DNA of 64,000 nt from Clostridia bacterium (GCA_003246365.1 QKAN01000190.1:35253-99252); one strand, 5' to 3'; counted from the stretch's first letter, positions 41,387 to 53,329 are shown. The notes: a model not told the origin generated them from the letters alone. Made by a program: numbers and translations.

Positions 41387-41689
41387 ACCTTTCCGGCAAG
41401 AGAAAATTACGAAGATAATGGATAGAGCCGCTATCGCACCAGCAAATCACCGGCGCGAAAGACAAACGCTCGCAGTAGGAACACTGCTACAGGAACATTC
41501 TACCACAACACCTGAAAACGTGTTATGATGAATGGCAAGGTTTTCGCCGGACGGATGTAAAATCATTGTGTCAATTTGCAAGAAAACCGCGTGTTTTTTC
41601 CACGAACAGAACCCGAAAAAGCCGAAAAAATAAACGCGGTACGGATTTTTCCGTGTTGCCGAACACACAACGCGTTGAATGGAACCCGA

Positions 41690-42766
41690 ATGAAAAAAAG
41701 AACCGCTACCCTGATTACAATCGGATTGTTTATCGTTCTTTTTATGGCAGCCCCATCCGCGGCTGAAGAAGCGCCTTTTTGCGGCGACTTGACCGGGGAC
41801 GGGATTACCAGCGCTGCGGATGCGGCGGCGATGCTGCGCGGCCTTGCTTTCGGCAGGCTTTCTGCGGACGACCGGCCGGATCTGGATTTCACCTATAACG
41901 GCGAGATCGACGGAATGGATGCGCGCGCGGCGCTGCTCTATGCCTGCGGCGGGATCGAATCTTTGGTTGACTTTGGCGAGCGCGTTGCAAGCGGACTTTG
42001 CGATGAATCGCTGTTTGATCATTTCTCGTATACGGGAATTCGGGACGACGGGGAAGGTAACTATAAAAGCGATACCGTCTCGGTTACGATTTCAAGCGGA
42101 CGCGTGGAAACCAGCAACTATCATCTGGCGGACATTTACGTGCAGGATATCGCCTGTATGCAAACCGCGTTCAGCGGCGGGGTGTATCGCGGCGGAACGG
42201 CGACCGTTCGTAAAATGTTTGATGCGACATCCGGCGCGGTCATCGCCATGAACGGGGATTATTACACGCAGCATTATTACGGCCCGATCATTCGAAACGG
42301 AATTACCTATTCGGATCGAATCAATCGCAGCTGGGATATTGCGGTTCTGCTGACAAACGGGGAACTTTTAACTTATAACTATCGCGAACTCACGACCGAA
42401 ATACTGGAAGGACTGGAAGTCTATCAAAGCTGGGTGTTTGGGCCGGCGCTTCTGGACGCGGAAGGGCACGCGAAAACAAAATTCCGAAGCGCCGTAACGA
42501 CGGCCAATCCGCGCTCGGTAATCGGATATTACGAACCGGGACACTATGCGTTTTTAGCGGTGGATGGACGATCCAGCAAATCCAAAGGATTGACGATGAG
42601 CCAGCTTTCGCAGCTTTGCGAAGATTTAGGGTTTGCGGCGGCGTATAATCTCGACGGCGGGCAGTCCAGCGTGCTGCTTTCGCAGGACGGGCCGATCAAT
42701 GTTCCTTACCGGGACGGACGACCCATCAGCGATGTGCTCGTTGTTTGCGATCTGCAGGAAGAATGA
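41690..42766 (+). CDS. Secreted dockerin-like domain + phosphodiester glycosidase (NAGPA family)
   Basis: Signal peptide; GDLTGDG...D / DFTYNGEIDGMDA duplicated motif; ADIYV, AMNGDYY, FGPALL, NPRSVIG, VDGR, AYNLDGGQS. Confidence 0.85.
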   Translation: MKKRTATLITIGLFIVLFMAAPSAAEEAPFCGDLTGDGITSAADAAAMLRGLAFGRLSADDRPDLDFTYNGEIDGMDARAALLYACGGIESLVDFGERVASGLCDESLFDHFSYTGIRDDGEGNYKSDTVSVTISSGRVETSNYHLADIYVQDIACMQTAFSGGVYRGGTATVRKMFDATSGAVIAMNGDYYTQHYYGPIIRNGITYSDRINRSWDIAVLLTNGELLTYNYRELTTEILEGLEVYQSWVFGPALLDAEGHAKTKFRSAVTTANPRSVIGYYEPGHYAFLAVDGRSSKSKGLTMSQLSQLCEDLGFAAAYNLDGGQSSVLLSQDGPINVPYRDGRPISDVLVVCDLQEE

Positions 42767-42908: not shown

Positions 42909-44255
42909 ATGGAAGATTTATTTCAAAACCATATAGAAGTAAATGCGCCGCTTGCCGACCGCATGCGCCCGCGCACGCTGGATGAGTTCATCGGACAGCG
43001 GCATATCGTTGGCGAAGGCAAGCTGCTCAGGCGCGCAATTTTAACAGACCGGCTGCAGTCGTCCATCTTTTTCGGCCCGCCGGGCACGGGGAAGACGACG
43101 CTCGCCGCCATTGTTGCCAATGCGACCGGCGGCGCGTTTGTAAAACTCAACGCCGTTACCGCGGGGGTCAAGGAGCTCAGGGTTATCGTGGACGAGGCGG
43201 AACGGAGGCTGAAGCTATACCGCCAGCCGACATATCTTTTGCTGGACGAATGCCACCGCTGGAACAAGACGCAGTCGGACTCGCTTCTGCCCGCGCTGGA
43301 AAAAGGCATCATCCGCTTTATCGGTTCCACAACGGAAAATCCGATGATTTCGATGACGAGCGCTATCGTTTCGCGCTGCCGCGTGTTTCAGTTTTATCCG
43401 CTGACAAACGAAGACGTGGAACAGGCGGTGCAAAACGCGGTTTTGGACGAGGAGCGCGGGTTCGGCAAACTGAATGTCGTTTTGGAAGACGAGGCGCTGC
43501 ATACCATTTCCGCAATTGCAAACGGAGACTGCCGCAACGCGCTCAACGCGCTGGAACTCGCGGTGCTGACCACTTCGCCGGATGAAGCGGGGGAGATTCG
43601 CGTCACGCGGGAAATCGCCGCCGAATCCAGCCAGAAAAAAGTGATCAAATGCGACGAGCAGCTTTTTTACGATATGCTCTCCGCGTTTTGCAAGAGCCTA
43701 CGCGGCGGAGATTCCGACGCGGCGATCGCCTGGTTTTCGCGCCTTTTATATGCGGGGGTTGACCCGCGCATTATCGCACGTCGGCTCATCGCCCATGCGA
43801 GCGAGGACGTTGGCCTCGCCAACCCGCAGGCAATGGTGCAGGCTGTTGCCGCGGCGGACGCGCTGGAGCACATCGGTTTGCCGGAAGCGCGGCTTTCGCT
43901 CGTGCAGGCAATCATTTTTATCTGCGAATCGCCAAAGTCCAACAGCGTGGTCGTTGCGCTGAGCGAGGCGGCGGCGGACGCGGAGGAGAGTTTTGACGAA
44001 CCGGTTCCGGTCTATCTTCGGGATACATCCTATTCCGGCGCGGGCAAACTAGGCCACGGAAAAGGATATCTCTATCCGCATGATTATCCGGGTCACTGGG
44101 TCAAGCAGGATTATATGCCGCCTTCGCTGAAAGGCCGGCGATACTATCTGCCGTCCGAACAGGGGCAGGAGGCGAAGATTCGCGAAAACCACGAAAAACG
44201 GGAAAAACTAAGACGCGGAGAGCCGATATCAACCGAAGAGAAAACCGAAGTTTAA
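42909..44255 (+). CDS. rarA: Replication-associated recombination protein A
   Basis: PLADRMRP, GPPGTGKTT, DECHRWNK, TTENP, ASEDVGLA, YLYPHDY. Confidence 0.96.
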   Translation: MEDLFQNHIEVNAPLADRMRPRTLDEFIGQRHIVGEGKLLRRAILTDRLQSSIFFGPPGTGKTTLAAIVANATGGAFVKLNAVTAGVKELRVIVDEAERRLKLYRQPTYLLLDECHRWNKTQSDSLLPALEKGIIRFIGSTTENPMISMTSAIVSRCRVFQFYPLTNEDVEQAVQNAVLDEERGFGKLNVVLEDEALHTISAIANGDCRNALNALELAVLTTSPDEAGEIRVTREIAAESSQKKVIKCDEQLFYDMLSAFCKSLRGGDSDAAIAWFSRLLYAGVDPRIIARRLIAHASEDVGLANPQAMVQAVAAADALEHIGLPEARLSLVQAIIFICESPKSNSVVVALSEAAADAEESFDEPVPVYLRDTSYSGAGKLGHGKGYLYPHDYPGHWVKQDYMPPSLKGRRYYLPSEQGQEAKIRENHEKREKLRRGEPISTEEKTEV

Positions 44256-44285
44256 CGCGCGTGATGCAAAGAGCAGGAGGCTAAG

Positions 44286-44738
44286 ATGACTGCACTGATT
44301 CCAATGACCAATATTACGTTTGCGCAACTGTTTGTCGCGATTTTTTCCGGCACATTCGGCTTGATGGGGCTTACCTTTCTCAGCGTCGGGCTGGGCATCA
44401 TCTTTGCGCAGAACCGGAAACGTACGCTCTGCACCGCTTATACGGAAGGCGTTGTCAGCGCCATGCAAAGCCAGTTTGGCACAAACGCACTTCGCGCTGT
44501 ATACAGTTTTTCCATCGAAGGAAAAGAGATGCAGTATATTTCCAACTATTCCGGCATGAACGATCTGCTCGTCGGGCAAGCGGTTCATGTGTATTACGAT
44601 CCGTCGCGGATCGGGCGCATTTATATTGAAGAAGATTCTCTGCAACTGCGTCGATTTTCCCGCATGTTCACGATTCTTGGCGGCATCTTTCTTGCCGTCG
44701 CGCTCATCGTTGCCGTCGTTTTGCTGGGCGTGCTGTAA
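44286..44738 (+). CDS. DUF3592-like membrane protein
   Basis: Two terminal TMs flanking TEGVV...YSF.IEG...VGQAVHVYYDP. Confidence 0.7.
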   Translation: MTALIPMTNITFAQLFVAIFSGTFGLMGLTFLSVGLGIIFAQNRKRTLCTAYTEGVVSAMQSQFGTNALRAVYSFSIEGKEMQYISNYSGMNDLLVGQAVHVYYDPSRIGRIYIEEDSLQLRRFSRMFTILGGIFLAVALIVAVVLLGVL

Positions 44739-44852
44739 AAAGGAACAAAACAACCGAAAAAAACGGTGGAATCCGGCCAAATTACGAAAAAAACCGCCGT
44801 TGCAGGATTGCGATGATATTTCGGACATTTTGTGAATAATCTTGGGGCATCA

Positions 44853-44881
44853 TTGGCAGAGCTCCGGCCTTATGGTAAACT
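44853..44881 (+). promoter_or_regulatory. Putative promoter of the CotH-VTC-DUF4956 operon
   Basis: TTGGCA, 17 bp spacer, TAAACT with TG extension. Confidence 0.6.
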
Positions 44882-44932
44882 GGACGTTGCGAAAATGCGA
44901 TTTTGCAGCTTCGCGAAAGGAGCATTTATCCC

Positions 44933-47900
44933 ATGGCGAAACGAAGAAGGAGAGCTTCCGGCGCACGCAAGATGCTGATTATTCTGCTTCTTGCCGTCTG
45001 CGTTGTTGCGCTCATTCTTTATTTAAGAAACGGCGGACAGGCTTCCGATACAACCGGCGCGGGGCAGGTCGAGATCAACGAGGTCATGACCAGCAACAAA
45101 GGTACCGTGCCGGACGAAACCGGCGATTTTCCGGATTGGGTGGAAATTTACAACAACACCGATTCGGCGCTGGATATATCGGGCTATGGTTTGACGGACG
45201 ATTTAATCTCCGCTGCAAAGTGGACATTCCCCGAGGGCTCGGTGATCGAAGCCCGCGGGTATCTTGTGGTTTTCTGCAGTGGGGACACTACGCGCGGCAG
45301 CATGCATACGCCGTTTAAACTCTCTGCTTCGGACGATGTAATTCTTTCCAACGTATCCGGCAAAGTGGTTGACAGCATCAGTCTGACGCCCGTGACGAGC
45401 GGGTATTCCCTCGGACGCAGCGCGGACGATGGAACCACCTGGAAAGAAATGCTGCCAAGTCCGGGTTATGCAAACACGGATGAAGGCGCGGCACAGTATC
45501 TTTCGACGCTTTCCGCCTCGGCGGACGAGTCCATCGGCGTATATATCAATGAGTTTATGCCGAGCAACGCTTCTACGCTGATCGGTCCGGACGGATCGTA
45601 TTGCGATTGGATTGAACTATACAACACCACCGGTTCGGAAATCGATCTTTCCGGATACGGTATTTCGGATTCCGCGACGCAGCCGCTGAAATACACGCTG
45701 CCCTCCGGAACAAAGATTGCGGCAAACAGCGTTCTGCTGATTTACTGCACAGGTCGAGAAACGCCGGACGGTTCGGAAAAAATCGAGGCGCCGTTTGGCC
45801 TTGCGGCATATTCCGAAAGCGTGGTGTTCTCAACGCCCGCCGGACGCATTCTCGACGAATACGACTATACCCGCGCAGGCACCGACATCAGCTACGCAAG
45901 AAATCCGGACGGCACGGGTGAATGGGCAACCACATCCCAGCCCACACCGGGATACACGAACAACAACGCGGGTTTGCAGGCGTTTATGAAAACGCTCTCC
46001 TTCGGCACGGGAGATATCGTCATCTCCGAAGTGCTCAACGCAAACGTTTCGTATTTGAAACAGCCGGACGGAGAATACTACGACTGGATCGAAATTCATA
46101 ACACGACGGGATCTCCCATTTCACTGGCCGGATATGCTCTGAGCAACAATGCGAAGAATCCGGCCAAATGGACGTTTCCCGACGTAACGCTCGATGCGGG
46201 CGAATATTTAACGGTTCTGGCGTCGGGAAAGAATGTCTCCGACGCGCAAAAAAAAAATAATCTAGAAACCAACTTTACCCTCTCTTCGGAAGGGGACGTC
46301 GTGTTTCTCTTTTCCCCGGACGCTACGATCCTCGATAAAATTCTCGTGCCACAGGGTCACGCGGACGTGAGCTACGGCAGAACGGATTCGAGCCTGCTCT
46401 TTTATGCAACGCCGACGCCAAACGCGGCAAACGGTTCCGGTGTGCTCGGTTATGCGGAAGAGCCAACCATTGTTACCGCGGGCGGCGAGTTTGGCAGCGC
46501 GCAGCTGGTGACCATCGAGGTACCGGAAGGCTGCTCGGTTACCTACACCACAGACGGAACGGTTCCAACCGAAAATTCTACGCGGTATTCCGGCCCGATT
46601 ACGATTTCCAAGACGACGCCGCTGCGTGCGCGCGCGTTTCAAACGGGATATTACGGCAGCGATACCGCGAGCCAGACGTTTGTCATCTATACCGGCGAAA
46701 GCACGATTGAGAACCATCAATTTACGCTGCCGGTGGTCAGCATCGTCACCGATCCGGATAACCTCTGGGATCCGGACACCGGCATCTATGTCATCGGCAC
46801 GGAATATGCCGCGACGACCACAGACCAAAGCCCGACCGACCTTACGATGACAAAAGGCATGAACGACTCGAACTGGTACCTTGCCAACTTTAATGCGGTT
46901 TCATCTTCGCACCCCGATCCGCTCGGCAGAGACTGGGAGCGGGACGTGCATTTTGACTACATCGACGAAAATGGCGTTTCCCAATTCAGCGGAGACGGCG
47001 TCGTTCAGATTCAGGGACAGTATTCGCGCAACAAAGAACAAAAGGGTCTCGCGTTGATTGCGAAGGGCGCATACGGCGACTCGATGTTCAATTATGCGTT
47101 TTTTGAAAACCGCGATATTACGAGCTATAAATCGATCATTCTGCGTGCCAGCGCACAGGACGCGACGAACAGCAGAATCCGCGACAACCTGGTGACCACC
47201 CTTTTTGAAGAAGGAGACACCGGACTGCCTGCGGATCGCAACGTAATTGTGCAGGCGCATAAACAGGTTGTCGTGCTGATCAACGGACAGTATTGGGGCG
47301 TATACGACCTGATGGAGCGCATCACGGCGGACTTTATCGCCGAGCGGTTCAATCTGAACAATCCTGATTCTGTCGATCTGCTCTATGGCAACGGTAACGA
47401 CAAGTGCGTCCTCGCCGGCGACGGCTGGGAAGACTACACCGATATGGTGGAATGGGCAGGCAGTCACGATTTAAGCAATTCCGCCAATTATGAATACATC
47501 AGCTCGCTCATGGACGTGGAAAACTACGCAACCTATGTCGCGGCTGAAATCATCGTTGGCAACTCCGACTCCGGCAACATCAAATACTGGCGCAGTACAG
47601 AAACGGACAACAAGTGGCGTTGGATTCTCTATGACTTCTGCTGGGCGATGAACCGCAACGACAGCTATTCCGATACGGCAACTGTCGGATACCGCAGAGA
47701 CTTTTTCTCCCGCTACTTTAACGTGGAAGGTCATGGTTCCAGCAAAGCAACCTCAACGGTGCTGATTCGCGCGTTGCTTGAGAATGCTTCGTTCCGGCAG
47801 ATGTTCCTCGAAAAAACGGCGATCATGATCAACGACATCTATTCTCCGGAAAAGATCAACGCCATGGTAGACCGTCTGCAGGGCAACATTGCCGAAGAGA

Positions 47901-48100
47901 TGAAGTATGATGTAGATATCTGGAACGACATCAACTATAGCTCCTGGCAGCAGCATTGCGATAACATCCGCGCATACGCGGACAACTATAAGCCATACGC
48001 GCTGAAATACGTGCAGAACTATTTCAGCCTCAGCGACGCAGAGATGCTCAGCATCTTCGGCAGCACAACAACACTGGAAGATACAACAAATGACGGCTAA
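44933..48100 (+). CDS. Membrane-anchored protein with 3 lamin-tail domains, an Fn3-associated/CHB_HEX_C-like domain and a CotH kinase domain
   Basis: Basic N-terminus + TM; three (I)NE/SE...DWxExxN...xSGYxLxD/N...TP repeats; YTTDGTVPT...PLRARAF; NGQYWGVYDLMER, GNSDSGN, KWRWILYD. Confidence 0.9.
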   Translation: MAKRRRRASGARKMLIILLLAVCVVALILYLRNGGQASDTTGAGQVEINEVMTSNKGTVPDETGDFPDWVEIYNNTDSALDISGYGLTDDLISAAKWTFPEGSVIEARGYLVVFCSGDTTRGSMHTPFKLSASDDVILSNVSGKVVDSISLTPVTSGYSLGRSADDGTTWKEMLPSPGYANTDEGAAQYLSTLSASADESIGVYINEFMPSNASTLIGPDGSYCDWIELYNTTGSEIDLSGYGISDSATQPLKYTLPSGTKIAANSVLLIYCTGRETPDGSEKIEAPFGLAAYSESVVFSTPAGRILDEYDYTRAGTDISYARNPDGTGEWATTSQPTPGYTNNNAGLQAFMKTLSFGTGDIVISEVLNANVSYLKQPDGEYYDWIEIHNTTGSPISLAGYALSNNAKNPAKWTFPDVTLDAGEYLTVLASGKNVSDAQKKNNLETNFTLSSEGDVVFLFSPDATILDKILVPQGHADVSYGRTDSSLLFYATPTPNAANGSGVLGYAEEPTIVTAGGEFGSAQLVTIEVPEGCSVTYTTDGTVPTENSTRYSGPITISKTTPLRARAFQTGYYGSDTASQTFVIYTGESTIENHQFTLPVVSIVTDPDNLWDPDTGIYVIGTEYAATTTDQSPTDLTMTKGMNDSNWYLANFNAVSSSHPDPLGRDWERDVHFDYIDENGVSQFSGDGVVQIQGQYSRNKEQKGLALIAKGAYGDSMFNYAFFENRDITSYKSIILRASAQDATNSRIRDNLVTTLFEEGDTGLPADRNVIVQAHKQVVVLINGQYWGVYDLMERITADFIAERFNLNNPDSVDLLYGNGNDKCVLAGDGWEDYTDMVEWAGSHDLSNSANYEYISSLMDVENYATYVAAEIIVGNSDSGNIKYWRSTETDNKWRWILYDFCWAMNRNDSYSDTATVGYRRDFFSRYFNVEGHGSSKATSTVLIRALLENASFRQMFLEKTAIMINDIYSPEKINAMVDRLQGNIAEEMKYDVDIWNDINYSSWQQHCDNIRAYADNYKPYALKYVQNYFSLSDAEMLSIFGSTTTLEDTTNDG

Positions 48101-48803
48101 GCGGGATCTCGCCGGAAAGCAATACCGGCACGAATTAAAATACGTCATCTCCGAAGGGGAGCACCACCTCCTGAGCACGCGCATCAAGGCGTGCCTCAGG
48201 CAGGATTATCACGCTTCCATCAACGGCGGAGAGTATTTTATCCGCAGCTTATATTTTGACGATCCGTTTGACTCCGCGATATGGGAAAAGTCGATGGGCG
48301 TGAGCTCGCGCGATAAGTTCCGCATCCGCATTTACAACCTTTCCGACAGCGCGATAAAACTCGAACGCAAGCATAAGGAAGGGCAGTATATCAAGAAGGA
48401 CAGCGTGTCGTTAAGCCGCGCGGACTGCGATTCGATTTTGCACGGCAATATCGAGTGTCTGCGGTTCAACGAAAACCCGATGGCGATGCAGTTTTACGGC
48501 ATCTTCAAGGCGAATTATCTCAAGCCGAAAGTGCTGGTGGATTATACGCGCGAACCGTATGTGTTTCCCGATGAGGAAGTGCGCATCACATTCGATAAAA
48601 ACGTCCGCACCGCAATGCGCAACACAGATCTGTTTAATCCACATTTGGTGACGTACCCCGTTTCGGAGTTGCGCAATTGCATGATCCTCGAGGTCAAGTT
48701 CAACCGCGAACTGCCCGAATATGTGCAGCAACTGCTCACGCTCGGCTCAGCGGAGCGCACCGCCGCAAGCAAATATGTTTTTTGCCGTCAATATGAGTTT
48801 TAA
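48090..48803 (+). CDS. VTC-domain (CYTH/TTM) polyphosphate polymerase-like protein
   Basis: RHELKY, RSLYFD, KFRIRIY, KLERKHK, YTRE, RITFD, ILEVKF, SKY; overlaps the CotH stop. Confidence 0.92.
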   Translation: MTAKRDLAGKQYRHELKYVISEGEHHLLSTRIKACLRQDYHASINGGEYFIRSLYFDDPFDSAIWEKSMGVSSRDKFRIRIYNLSDSAIKLERKHKEGQYIKKDSVSLSRADCDSILHGNIECLRFNENPMAMQFYGIFKANYLKPKVLVDYTREPYVFPDEEVRITFDKNVRTAMRNTDLFNPHLVTYPVSELRNCMILEVKFNRELPEYVQQLLTLGSAERTAASKYVFCRQYEF

Positions 48804-48925
48804 AACGATCTCGCTGTTGTAGTATATATGCATCTGAATTACAACAGGGAAACGAAATTCGATTTCTTCACGCGGAACGCGTGAGCAAGATATTTGTTAT
48901 CAGGACGATGGTAAGGAGGAACTAT

Positions 48926-49618
48926 ATGAATCCCATTTTTCGCGCGGCGGACGATCCCCTCGCAACCGCGTTCAACCTCAAGGACCTATTCTCCAGCACG
49001 CTCAACCCATTGCAGGTGATCCTGACGCTGATCATCGCGCTCGGTATCGGCGGATTTCTGTATTTCATCTACAAGAAGACGTTTGCCGGGGTTGTGTATT
49101 CGCGCTCGTTCAACATGAGCCTGATCCTGCTTACCATGGTTTCCGCGATGGTAATCATGCTCATCAGCTCCAACCTGACGCTCTCTTTGGGCATGGTCGG
49201 CGCGTTGTCCATCGTGCGTTTCAGAACCGCAATCAAAGACCCCATCGACACGGTGTATATGTTCTGGGCGGTGGGCGAAGGCCTTGCGCTCGGCGCCGGG
49301 TTTGTGGACGTCGGCCTCATCGGTGCGCTGGTCATCGGCGTGATCATGGTGATCATCACCTCGGCAAAGGGCAACAACACCATGCCGTATCTGCTGATTC
49401 TGCACTTTGACGACCGCGCGAGCCAGCAGATCAAAGGCTTGATCCGCCAGCTGCCCAAGGCGCACATCAAGAGCAAAACCGTGCAGCACGACGGAATTGA
49501 GCTGACGATCGAACTGCGCATCCGCGAGAGCGACACCGACTTTGTCGATAAGTTCCTGCGCGTGCCCGGCGTTTTCGATGCAACGCTTGTTGCGCATCAG
49601 GGAGACCTGCTCGCGTAA
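48926..49618 (+). CDS. DUF4956 membrane protein
   Basis: About 4-5 TMs; LSLGMVGALSIVRFRTAIKDP; soluble C-terminal domain; RBS AAGGAGG. Confidence 0.92.
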   Translation: MNPIFRAADDPLATAFNLKDLFSSTLNPLQVILTLIIALGIGGFLYFIYKKTFAGVVYSRSFNMSLILLTMVSAMVIMLISSNLTLSLGMVGALSIVRFRTAIKDPIDTVYMFWAVGEGLALGAGFVDVGLIGALVIGVIMVIITSAKGNNTMPYLLILHFDDRASQQIKGLIRQLPKAHIKSKTVQHDGIELTIELRIRESDTDFVDKFLRVPGVFDATLVAHQGDLLA

Positions 49619-49647
49619 ATAACAGAAAACCAACAAAAAACAGATCG

Positions 49648-49686
49648 GCCGGAAGGACGGATACTACCGTCTTTCCGGCTGTTTTT
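49648..49686 (+). terminator. Terminator closing the CotH-VTC-DUF4956 operon
   Basis: GCCGGAAGGACGG-ATACTA-CCGTCTTTCCGGC-TGTTTTT. Confidence 0.8.
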
Positions 49687-49864
49687 GCGCGCAAAAATTG
49701 CGATTACATGCCTGCTTTAAAAAGACCGCGTAAAAATGCGTAAAATTACGGAAAAAAGCGTGTAAATTCAAAAAAATCAACCCAAAATCGGGAGTTCTTT
49801 TCTATAATATATATACGGACTATGAATTTTATGTTATACTATACAAGAATAAATTTGGGGAAGT

Positions 49865-50977
49865 TTGAGCAGCGAACGCATGCGCGTGACCGGTCTACGG
49901 CTTGTCAATTTCAGAAATTATCCGTCGCTCTCCCTGCGTCCCGACGCGGGCCTTTGCGTACTGACGGGTGAAAACGCCGCAGGCAAGACCAACGTGCTGG
50001 AGTCGCTGTTTTTATGCTCTCTCGGGCGCAGTCACCGAACGGTAAGGGACGGGGAAATGGTGCGCGCGGGAGAACTCTACGCCAGCGTGGCGGTAGATGT
50101 CGACACGCGCGGCGGCCCAAGAAGAATTGAATGCAAACTCTTTCCCGGCGAGCGTAAAAAGATATTGATCGACGGCGCGCCGATTGCCCGAAGCGGCGAA
50201 CTGCTGGGCTGTCTCAATGTGGTTATGTTTGCGCCGGAGGATCTGGAACTCGTCAAAGGCGGACCGGGCGAGCGCAGGCGCTTTCTCGACATGGCGATAT
50301 CTCAGCTGCGCCCGTCATACTATTACACCCTGCAGCAATACAACGCCGCGCTCAAGCAGAGAAACGTTCTGCTAAAAGACCCGGAAGGGCTGGACTACGA
50401 CGCGCTGGAGAGCTGGGACGAACAGCTTGCCGTTCTCGGCGCATCCATCATCCTAAATCGTTCGGAGCTGGTCGATCGGCTTTCCGCCATTGCGGAAGAA
50501 CAGCACGAAACCCTTTCCGACGGAGCGGAGACGCTCGCGGTTGAATACGAACCGAACGTGGCGCCCGTGTCGACCAGCGATTTGGCAAAGACGCTGCGCC
50601 TCGCGCTTTCGGACACGGCGGAGCGGGACGTTTTTCGCGGCAGCACATCCGTCGGCCCGCATCGGGACGATCTTGCGCTCCGCGTGAGCGGAAAAGATGT
50701 GCGCGTATACGGTTCGCAGGGACAGCAGCGAACGACGGTGCTGAGCCTGAAACTTGCCCAGCTGGAAATTCTACGCATAGAAAAAGAAGATGCGCCGGTG
50801 TTGTTGCTGGACGACGTGTTTTCAGAGCTTGACCGCAACCGGCAGAAGATGCTGCTCATCGCCGCGCAGGACTGTCAAACGTTTCTCACCTGCACGCATC
50901 TCGAAGAGGTTGCGGCGGCGGGCGTGGAGCAGATGCAGGTGTATGAGGTTGCGAATCGACGCGTGACGGAACAATAA
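49865..50977 (+). CDS. recF: DNA replication/repair protein RecF
   Basis: NFRNY, GENAAGKTN, GGPGERRRFLD, GPHRDD, GSQGQQR, LLLDDVFSELD; start may be ATG 49880. Confidence 0.97.
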   Translation: MSSERMRVTGLRLVNFRNYPSLSLRPDAGLCVLTGENAAGKTNVLESLFLCSLGRSHRTVRDGEMVRAGELYASVAVDVDTRGGPRRIECKLFPGERKKILIDGAPIARSGELLGCLNVVMFAPEDLELVKGGPGERRRFLDMAISQLRPSYYYTLQQYNAALKQRNVLLKDPEGLDYDALESWDEQLAVLGASIILNRSELVDRLSAIAEEQHETLSDGAETLAVEYEPNVAPVSTSDLAKTLRLALSDTAERDVFRGSTSVGPHRDDLALRVSGKDVRVYGSQGQQRTTVLSLKLAQLEILRIEKEDAPVLLLDDVFSELDRNRQKMLLIAAQDCQTFLTCTHLEEVAAAGVEQMQVYEVANRRVTEQ

Positions 50978-50990
50978 GGAGGCAGACGAA

Positions 50991-53329
<2,339 letters not shown>

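Follow-up and report, generated by a model that had tools for sequence, protein, structure and literature searches.

A three-gene unit that places a CotH-type kinase homologue beside a homologue of the yeast polyphosphate polymerase Vtc4 and a membrane protein of the DUF4956 family was analyzed in the genome of a Clostridia bacterium, within a stretch of 64,000 nucleotides (GCA_003246365.1, QKAN01000190.1:35253-99252; hereafter the window). Gene calls and Pfam matches identified three co-directional genes, cotH-like, VTC and DUF4956, in this order at window positions 44933-49618 (+), in agreement with an earlier description of the unit and its domains by a model that had seen only the DNA (hereafter the sequence-only reading). 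Comparison across genomes revealed that the invariant core of the system is the VTC-DUF4956 pair rather than the kinase, and that the outer partner is swappable. The trio is very probably a real functional module, which is widespread, self-contained and dedicated to the cell envelope. The mechanism put forward in the sequence-only reading, in which polyphosphate made by VTC would pass by way of DUF4956 to a CotH kinase outside the membrane, is given a probability of roughly 0.4; it is attractive and partly supported, and in its simplest form it runs counter to one published phenotype.

The distribution of the two core families was examined in 251 genomes of the window's phylum (first sample) and in 149 scored genomes of a different phylum (second sample). 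In the first sample, 38 genomes gave a VTC match and 39 a match to DUF4956, the extra one being sub-threshold. All 38 VTC-bearing genomes contained DUF4956, with equal match counts for both families in the six multi-copy genomes, and DUF4956 was located within 2 kb of VTC at 44 of the 46 VTC places (counted by hand). At one of the two unpaired places both genes are at contig ends, and at the other (genome G190) DUF4956 and Cthe_2159 are on one contig together with genes for a histidine kinase and a response regulator, and VTC is on another. VTC was found in 29 genomes of the second sample, 28 of which gave a Pfam match to DUF4956; in the 29th, an overlapping 231-residue neighbor of VTC proved to be a divergent DUF4956 protein (hhalign 99.6%, E 1.3e-24). 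When both samples were pooled, DUF4956 was present in 67 of 67 VTC-bearing genomes, almost always adjoining VTC. Among 14 control genomes, VTC was confined to Bacteroides thetaiotaomicron, Corynebacterium glutamicum and Methanosarcina acetivorans, and so was DUF4956; CotH occurred in these three and in Bacillus subtilis. Moreover, pattern scanning with each species represented by a single genome yielded at least 587 confirmed DUF4956 loci, the best 80 of which, all from other species, were surveyed with profiles built from our own alignments. This set is biased to the window's DUF4956 subfamily, and VTC lay within 1.5 kb of DUF4956 in 78 of its 80 loci. Thus, the co-conservation of CotH, VTC and DUF4956 that had been mentioned in the sequence-only reading goes far beyond chance in both phylum samples and in the 80 loci.

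The third partner is more variable. CotH was found within 4 kb in 69 of the 80 loci and a beta-helix lipoprotein of the Cthe_2159 type (Pfam match of one representative, 6.1e-100) in 9; three loci had neither, and two of these three lie at contig ends. An N-terminal hydrophobic segment is present in 9/9 Cthe_2159 proteins. A hand count of the 46 VTC places of the first sample gave CotH within approximately 3 kb at 28, Cthe_2159 at 6, no recognizable partner or a contig end at 9, and proteins that carry only a lamin-tail domain (LTD) or leucine-rich repeats plus an LTD at 3; these last hint that the LTD itself, besides the kinase, is tied to the VTC-DUF4956 pair. At the genome level, CotH was detected in 31 of 38 VTC genomes versus 6 of 213 genomes without VTC in the first sample, and in 19 of 29 VTC genomes versus 9 of approximately 120 others in the second. 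The gene order in the 80 loci was VTC-DUF4956-CotH in 42, CotH-VTC-DUF4956 (the window order) in 24 and VTC-DUF4956-Cthe_2159 in 7, and further orders were present in the first sample; such variability implies selection for linkage and not inherited synteny. An OmpR-type two-component system was identified in 25 of the 80 loci, and no other family recurs around the trio. These neighboring systems are generic OmpR and PhoR-like proteins that fall below every equivalog cut-off. Individual loci in which LTD-only or leucine-rich-repeat-plus-LTD proteins stand in for CotH beside the pair are L021:7545-8216, L022:9495-10661 and L023:6722-7879.

The VTC gene (48090-48803, +; ATG at 48090, overlapping the end of cotH, stop codon included, by 11 nt) encodes 237 residues and matches Pfam VTC (PF09359) at 3.4e-39 (135.2 bits, cut-off 23). 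No further Pfam domain, SPX and DUF202 included, and no hydrophobic segment were found in this protein; any hydrophobic segment was present in just 2 of 68 VTC proteins. The window genome, which is 87% complete and 6.5% contaminated, also gave no DUF202 match. A profile of 34 bacterial VTC sequences matched yeast Vtc4 (3g3q) at 1.1e-22, Vtc2 at 1.5e-12 and Vtc3 also more weakly than Vtc4, and the Vtc2 and Vtc3 matches begin only at profile position 46. Vtc4 is the catalytic subunit of the yeast complex, whereas Vtc2 and Vtc3 are inactive. The paired bacterial and yeast motifs are R-x-E-x-K-Y and R-Q-T-T-K-Y, K-x-R-x-R-x-Y and H-R-L-R-W-Y, E-x-K and E-R-K, Y-x-R and Y-N-R, R-I-T-F-D and R-I-S-L-D, L-E-V-K in both, and S-K-Y and S-K-F. 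Residues K17, R78, R80, K94, Y152, R154, R165, E201, S227 and K228 vary little or not at all across 103 aligned rows, one basic tunnel position alternating between K and R; the aligned positions are presumably Vtc4 K200, R264, R266, K281, Y359, R361, R373, E426, S457 and K458. All Vtc4 tunnel residues are therefore kept in the alignment, and the basic tunnel motifs are intact, as the sequence-only reading had stated.

The DUF4956 gene (48926-49618, +; ATG at 48926, ribosome-binding site AAGGAGG) encodes 230 residues and matches Pfam DUF4956 (PF16316) at 6.1e-10 (39.5 bits, cut-off 30.6). An AlphaFold model (pLDDT 83.6, pTM 0.71) contains helices at residues 28-52, 60-80, 84-96, 106-123 and 127-150, followed by a C-terminal domain of beta-alpha-beta-beta-alpha-beta order at 153-223. 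G92, S95, R98, R100 and G119 are invariant in 101 aligned rows and residue 99 is F in 100 and Y in one; the invariant R-F-R loop (R98-F99-R100) revealed by this alignment is encoded from nucleotide 49214 (+). Basic residues are located in the loops after helix 1 (K-K..R) and helix 3 (R-F-R-T-A-I-K), and the positive-inside rule would place the N-terminus outside and the R-F-R loop together with the C-terminal domain in the cytoplasm. Fold searches related this domain to ACT domains (Z 11.3-10.4) and to the C-terminal domains of MgtC from Mycobacterium tuberculosis and Pseudomonas aeruginosa (2lqj, Z 10.1, root-mean-square deviation 2.8 over 82 residues; 7qa5, Z 9.2), both searches matching the C-terminal domain only and leaving the membrane part without a match. 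Sub-threshold matches to Pfam MgtC (PF02308) were found in 19 of 28 DUF4956 members (best 1.9e-4), and the NCBIfam MgtC/SapB match was also sub-threshold (E 0.0022, 17.6 bits, cut-off 214). With five helices and a cytoplasmic ACT-like domain in the model, the protein looks MgtC-like. Foldseek returned no match to DUF4956 in the PDB at E <= 0.001, single-sequence searches against solved structures gave nothing for the CotH, VTC or DUF4956 protein, and scores in an ESM Atlas search were at most 0.85, which can be taken as leads only. A complex prediction for DUF4956 with VTC ended with a score of 0.00, that is, with no answer, and counts neither way. The natural DUF4956-to-VTC fusion P0012, modelled with AlphaFold from unpaired rows, reached pLDDT 82.9 and pTM 0.60, with a linker below 50 and no defined arrangement of the two parts.

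The cotH-like gene (44933-48100, +; ATG at 44933, ribosome-binding site AAAGGAG) encodes 1055 residues. Its N-terminus consists of a basic run followed by a hydrophobic stretch (hydrophobicity maximum 3.4) and reads as a signal anchor at approximately residues 14-31. Three LTDs follow at 45053-46400 (+), detected by Pfam as three stretches (1.5e-50); the first was placed by Pfam, for its best stretch only, at 45053-45382, and the starts of the second and third (near 45545 and 46022) are approximate and were set from the I/V-N/S-E motif. A CHB_HEX_C_1/Fn3-associated domain was detected at 46478-46681 (+; Pfam 7.3e-16 and 1.1e-12; residues 526-593 of a 1065-residue reading frame), and the CotH kinase domain at 47003-47986 (+; Pfam 1.5e-41, 143.4 bits, cut-off 23.8). 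An N-terminal hydrophobic segment is present in 58 of 62 CotH proteins, 31 of which have a C-terminal one as well, and many carry lipoprotein-like L-x-G-C sites. The CotH domain is thus predicted to lie outside the membrane; together with the near-absence of hydrophobic segments from VTC, this pattern upholds, as a prediction, the arrangement of an outer kinase and a cytoplasmic VTC. Three CotH genes from genomes without VTC are reading frames of 360-369 residues, a size class seen apart from VTC in both phylum samples, and the solved chain of the Bacillus cereus spore-coat CotH has 359.

Motif placement in the translation located the catalytic-loop motif GNSDSG at 47558-47575 (+) and the metal-site motif YDFC, residues 900-903, at 47630-47641 (+). 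A profile of 26 CotH sequences matched B. cereus CotH (5jd9) at 6.6e-56, and the aspartates of GNSDSG and YDFC align with chain positions 224 and 247, which we take to be D228 and D251 of B. subtilis, the residues tested by mutation. Both the catalytic-loop and the metal-site aspartate are present in 64 of 64 CotH rows that cover the site, from 70 proteins in total. In the window protein, the second Asp of W-D-x-D is replaced by Cys, and the sequence-only reading had taken this as a possible sign of an altered phosphoryl donor. That hint is weak, since this position is N in 40, D in 15 and C in 9 of the 70 proteins (6 rows being incomplete) and both aspartates above are kept. All nine Cys forms read Y-D-[F/Y]-C-W and fall in the window's LTD-CotH subclade, whose sister proteins have Y-D-x-D; conservation of the Cys in this subclade at a position that varies across the family indicates a lineage variant and neither decay nor a breach of rule. 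In two pel-linked loci with tandem CotH genes (L042:7612-9324 and L043:7765-9498), one paralogue was observed to be without both catalytic aspartates, having S-S-F-E-D for W-D-Y-D and no N-x-D; from its sequence it looks like a pseudokinase partner.

Fused forms of these proteins were also considered. A DUF4956 profile search of 1.84 billion cluster representatives recovered 6628 proteins at E <= 1e-10, and among the best 150 family members 144 have at most 260 residues and 6 have more, so that nearly all of these stand alone. Many CotH+DUF4956 proteins were among the 120 matches listed, and in a recurrent type (P0120, P0064 and P0063) the ACT domain is missing, an additional helix links the DUF4956 helices to CotH, and the protein closes with a basic-tailed C-terminal anchor. 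P0120 was observed on 45 contigs, and 662 member sequences are represented by P0063; the architecture of P0120 fits a CotH domain on the outside. Two other CotH+DUF4956 proteins (P0010 and P0015) look like deletion chimeras. Six VTC+DUF4956 fusions were listed as well and were rejected as evidence, each being a single member on a single contig and probably an assembly or deletion chimera. In three of the six, the C-terminal S-K-Y of VTC is missing and the sequence passes directly to helix 1; one carries a linker that resembles a frameshift; and in four VTC is at the N-terminus, at odds with the predicted outside location of the DUF4956 N-terminus.

The window genome contains three VTC-DUF4956 pairs in all, including that of the window trio. 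A second trio (C237:4537-7597) has a 544-residue CotH with the motif H-D-L-D, and the third locus (C246:41579-48024) combines a two-component system, VTC, DUF4956, Cthe_2159 and a NAGPA-domain protein. Since PPK1, PPK2 and PPX are all present in the same genome, the three pairs are something other than the ordinary polyphosphate machinery. There is also an orphan LTD-CotH lipoprotein of 1105 residues (C112:5536-8853), which inspection by eye places between rplQ and ruvC, and a CorA-like gene, likewise recognized by eye, lies 3' of the second trio.

The trio itself is already in print, as an accessory cluster of pel loci. In Whitfield et al. (10.1101/768473), cotH, a polyphosphate polymerase gene, DUF4956 and DUF4832 are accessory genes contiguous with pelDEA(DA)FG, and such accessory genes are reported in streptococci, clostridia and bifidobacteria. 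A study of Streptococcus intermedius (10.1101/2024.04.20.589940; PMC12345266) characterizes the three proteins largely in the terms used here, with DUF4956 as MgtC-like helices plus an ACT domain. According to the pel accessory papers (10.1101/768473; PMC12345266), the trio was not found outside pel loci. The present survey contradicts this printed "only with pel" statement: pel-type genes were located within 6 kb of just 7 of 68 trios, the other 61 being away from them, and in the first sample PelF, PelG or DUF2194 lay beside 5 of 22 trio loci examined, six further trio loci being left out. In addition, PelG, PelF-type DUF3492 and DUF4832 had no match in the window genome at its 87% completeness.

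Deletion phenotypes have been reported for the S. intermedius genes. Aggregation in sputum medium fell by more than half when CotH (SIR_1594) or DUF4956 (SIR_1592) was deleted, and Pel was up in the DUF4956 deletion and down in the CotH deletion (PMC12345266); the authors suggested in the preprint that polyphosphate may stay in the cytoplasm (10.1101/2024.04.20.589940). For Clostridium perfringens, the NELoc-2 table of Lepp et al. 2010 contains two "VTC domain" genes; behind each comes a membrane protein of 222-226 residues annotated as tubulin/FtsZ, and the locus continues with CotH, a HEAT-repeat protein and a glycosyltransferase (PMC2879425). This layout matches the glycosyltransferase-linked loci L037-L040 of the survey, and judging from size, position and predicted location only, the "tubulin/FtsZ, GTPase" proteins are probably mis-annotated DUF4956 proteins. 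No paper on a VTC-DUF4956 complex, on polyphosphate export or on polyphosphate use by CotH was found in open PubMed Central and bioRxiv, where the literature retrieved holds only deletion phenotypes from one species; the remark in the sequence-only reading that the triad lacks a mechanistic characterization therefore stands for these sources.

The proposed mechanism can be outlined as follows. The core would be formed by VTC, as a cytoplasmic polyphosphate polymerase of the Vtc4 type, and its obligate MgtC-like partner DUF4956, and the third part would be a variable protein on the outer face of the membrane, represented here by the signal-anchored CotH kinase with three LTDs. VTC would dock on the cytoplasmic face of DUF4956, at the R-F-R loop and ACT-like domain, and make polyphosphate from ATP; the chain, or phosphoryl groups derived from it, would be handed to or across the membrane. 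Outside, CotH might use or attach the polyphosphate, giving phosphorylated surface proteins or glycans or a surface phosphate layer. The polymerase activity, the physical VTC-DUF4956 complex, the transmembrane transfer and the donor and substrate of CotH are what we infer in this scheme. A soluble, ATP-using polymerase homologue, an inseparable small membrane protein whose cytoplasmic loop is basic and conserved, and an interchangeable outer protein are what would be expected of a device that carries a cytoplasmic product outward. It is unlikely, but worth stating, that VTC-DUF4956 amounts to a prokaryotic polyphosphate synthase-translocase, a functional analogue of yeast VTC with an unrelated MgtC-like membrane part, which would thread polyphosphate to the surface, where interchangeable CotH, Cthe_2159 and LTD proteins would anchor it or take it as phosphoryl donor.

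Several observations weigh against the export of polyphosphate to an outer kinase. CotH keeps the canonical catalytic residues of the ATP type and, to our knowledge, no enzyme with a protein-kinase fold uses polyphosphate. CotH is also not obligatory, as no match was found in 7 of the 38 and 10 of the 29 VTC genomes of the two samples, and a five-helix DUF4956 monomer is too small to form a pore alone. In the bacterial VTC family, an invariant Glu (E15) of the R-x-E-x-K strand takes the place of the Thr of Vtc4; this brings the strand closer to the hydrolase signature that is classic for tunnel enzymes, and hydrolysis by the bacterial VTC is therefore possible. MgtC, which DUF4956 resembles, is treated in the S. 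intermedius paper as a regulator that binds other membrane proteins and forms no channel, and the VTC deletion (SIR_1593) still aggregated, with no change reported there (PMC12345266). Under a strict chain of donor supply, the VTC deletion should copy the CotH deletion, and the published one did not, although its silence could have been caused by masking through PPK or growth conditions. Thus, the idea of a kinase powered by export gains from co-conservation, from the tunnel residues and from the predicted topology, and is weakened in its argument from YDFC and in its simplest link between VTC and CotH.

Among the alternatives, the main one, a regulatory or homeostatic pair that acts on the cytoplasmic side only, is considered somewhat doubtful. 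Here the MgtC-like DUF4956 would bind other membrane machinery, its ACT-like domain would sense either the polyphosphate product of VTC or some small phosphate compound, and the pair would tune the export, activity or expression of a neighboring surface protein or exopolymer, whereas CotH would receive its donor from elsewhere (for instance from released ATP, or from ATP before or while it is exported) or act mainly as an adhesin. The MgtC-like features of DUF4956, the two-component system at 25 of 80 loci, the opposite Pel levels in the S. intermedius DUF4956 and CotH deletions with no VTC effect reported (PMC12345266), and the preprint authors' suggestion of cytoplasmic polyphosphate (10.1101/2024.04.20.589940) are all consistent with such a role. 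However, it leaves unexplained why a cytoplasmic polyphosphate enzyme should have a membrane partner of its own in all 67 genomes, why the partner genes nearly always encode outward-facing proteins, and why up to three pairs occur in genomes that have PPK1, PPK2 and PPX.

A role as an accessory of exopolymer modification is quite improbable. In that case the trio would serve an exopolysaccharide or a wall glycopolymer, a role already suggested for Pel, with CotH phosphorylating glycans or regulating the synthase; in the window genome the genes for the polymer would be located elsewhere. PelF, PelG or DUF2194 do occur beside 7 of 68 trios, as well as at the 5 of 22 first-sample loci, a gene for a family-2 glycosyltransferase (GT2) is present in four loci, in C. 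perfringens NELoc-2 a glycosyltransferase and a deacetylase adjoin this set of genes (PMC2879425), and the S. intermedius phenotypes would fit (PMC12345266). On the other hand, 61 of 68 trios are free of pel genes out to 6 kb, the 87%-complete window genome lacks matches to PelG, DUF3492 and DUF4832, no glycosyltransferase recurs around stand-alone trios, and the partners carry LTD, leucine-rich-repeat or beta-helix domains and no polymer-specific set. It is even less probable, and indeed very unlikely, that VTC is a triphosphate-tunnel hydrolase or makes some other phosphate product, its likeness to Vtc4 reflecting substrate binding only. The invariant Glu in place of Thr would suit a hydrolase, as would the lack of SPX and DUF202 in the protein and of a DUF202 match in the genome, whereas the profile is nearer to the catalytic subunit Vtc4 than to Vtc2 or Vtc3, the 103 rows show little or no variation at the basic tunnel residues, and the equivalent of K200, which is required for polymerization by Vtc4, is kept.

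With regard to the layout of the locus, the sequence-only reading had assigned the trio its own promoter and terminator. An intrinsic terminator was confirmed downstream of the DUF4956 gene at about 49646-49687 (+), with a 15-pair stem (10 G-C pairs), a 6-nt loop and a T run, and outranks all other candidates in the region by far. A sigma-70-like promoter candidate (TTGGCA-17 nt-TAAACT, TG-extended; 44853-44881, +) matches the consensus at 9 of 12 positions, and five promoter-like sites were observed in the region versus 4.8 expected from shuffles, so that the candidate by itself is no evidence. A terminator scan found none between the upstream gene for a small membrane protein, which ends at 44738, and cotH. 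With a promoter match at chance level and no upstream terminator, a cotH promoter of its own is plausible only. The 122-nt spacer between VTC and DUF4956 contains an 8-nt perfect inverted repeat, CTGTTGTA and TACAACAG separated by 18 nt, at 48814-48847 (+), which could act as a processing or attenuation hairpin; no Rfam match at E <= 0.1 was found in 44000-50000.

The upstream flank consists of genes for a NAGPA-domain protein, rarA and the small membrane protein, and recF and gyrB form the downstream flank, with recF, a 100-residue reading frame and gyrB directly 3' of the trio at 49865-53329 (+). The neighboring recF and gyrB place the trio in a region that usually flanks the replication origin of Firmicutes. 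In the closest related locus (L045, labelled uncultured Oscillospiraceae bacterium, 88% DUF4956 identity), the upstream reading frames of 450 and 160 residues have the same sizes as the window genes for rarA and the small membrane protein, a comparison of size only. The NAGPA protein of the window (41576-42766, +), three genes upstream of the trio, has a weak dockerin-like match at its N-terminus, and a second NAGPA protein ends the third VTC locus of the genome (C246:41579-42703, -). NAGPA was rejected as a fourth partner: it is near two loci of the window genome and beside 1 of 115 other loci, and is probably a peculiarity of this genome.

If VTC-DUF4956 makes and exports polyphosphate, it would constitute a source of phosphoryl donor for bacterial surface kinases, and if the synthase-translocase exists, ecto-kinases would be workable without extracellular ATP. 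We know of no coupled synthase of the VTC type outside eukaryotes, and the pair would then be the first. The survey also revises the printed view, as the trio is a free-standing module that is not pel-specific and that extends to the Bacteroides, Corynebacterium and Methanosarcina controls. The module is common in gut Clostridia and also occurs at the aggregation locus of S. intermedius and in necrotic-enteritis strains of C. perfringens, implying that its function bears on surface biology and colonization. The trio may serve some bacteria as a means of carrying phosphate chemistry to the cell exterior.

Four known systems invite comparison. The Gram-positive pel accessory cluster has the same three families side by side, but the window trio stands free between rarA and recF and is not contiguous with pelDEA(DA)FG, and its CotH protein is approximately twice as long and carries three LTDs. 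With MgtC/SapB proteins, DUF4956 has in common the predicted five helices and the C-terminal ACT-like domain; it differs in falling below every family cut-off, in its own invariant G-x-x-S-x-x-R-F-R signature and in being always paired with VTC. Bacillus CotH, a protein of approximately 360 residues that works inside the mother cell, shares with the window protein the kinase-like domain (5jd9/5jda), the catalytic-loop Asp and the metal-site Asp, whereas the window protein is predicted to be signal-anchored, is multi-domain and has Cys at the second Asp of W-D-x-D. The yeast VTC complex, the one relative that has been characterized, in which Vtc4 and the helices of Vtc1 and Vtc2/3 couple polyphosphate synthesis to membrane passage, uses as its membrane channel DUF202 helices that are fused to the enzyme or contributed by partner subunits. 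The bacterial enzyme, in contrast, is separate and soluble, lacks both SPX and DUF202 helices, has Glu for Thr in the first strand and is accompanied by an MgtC-like partner with no DUF202 match; what the two systems have in common is the catalytic domain family, the tunnel residues and an obligatory membrane companion.

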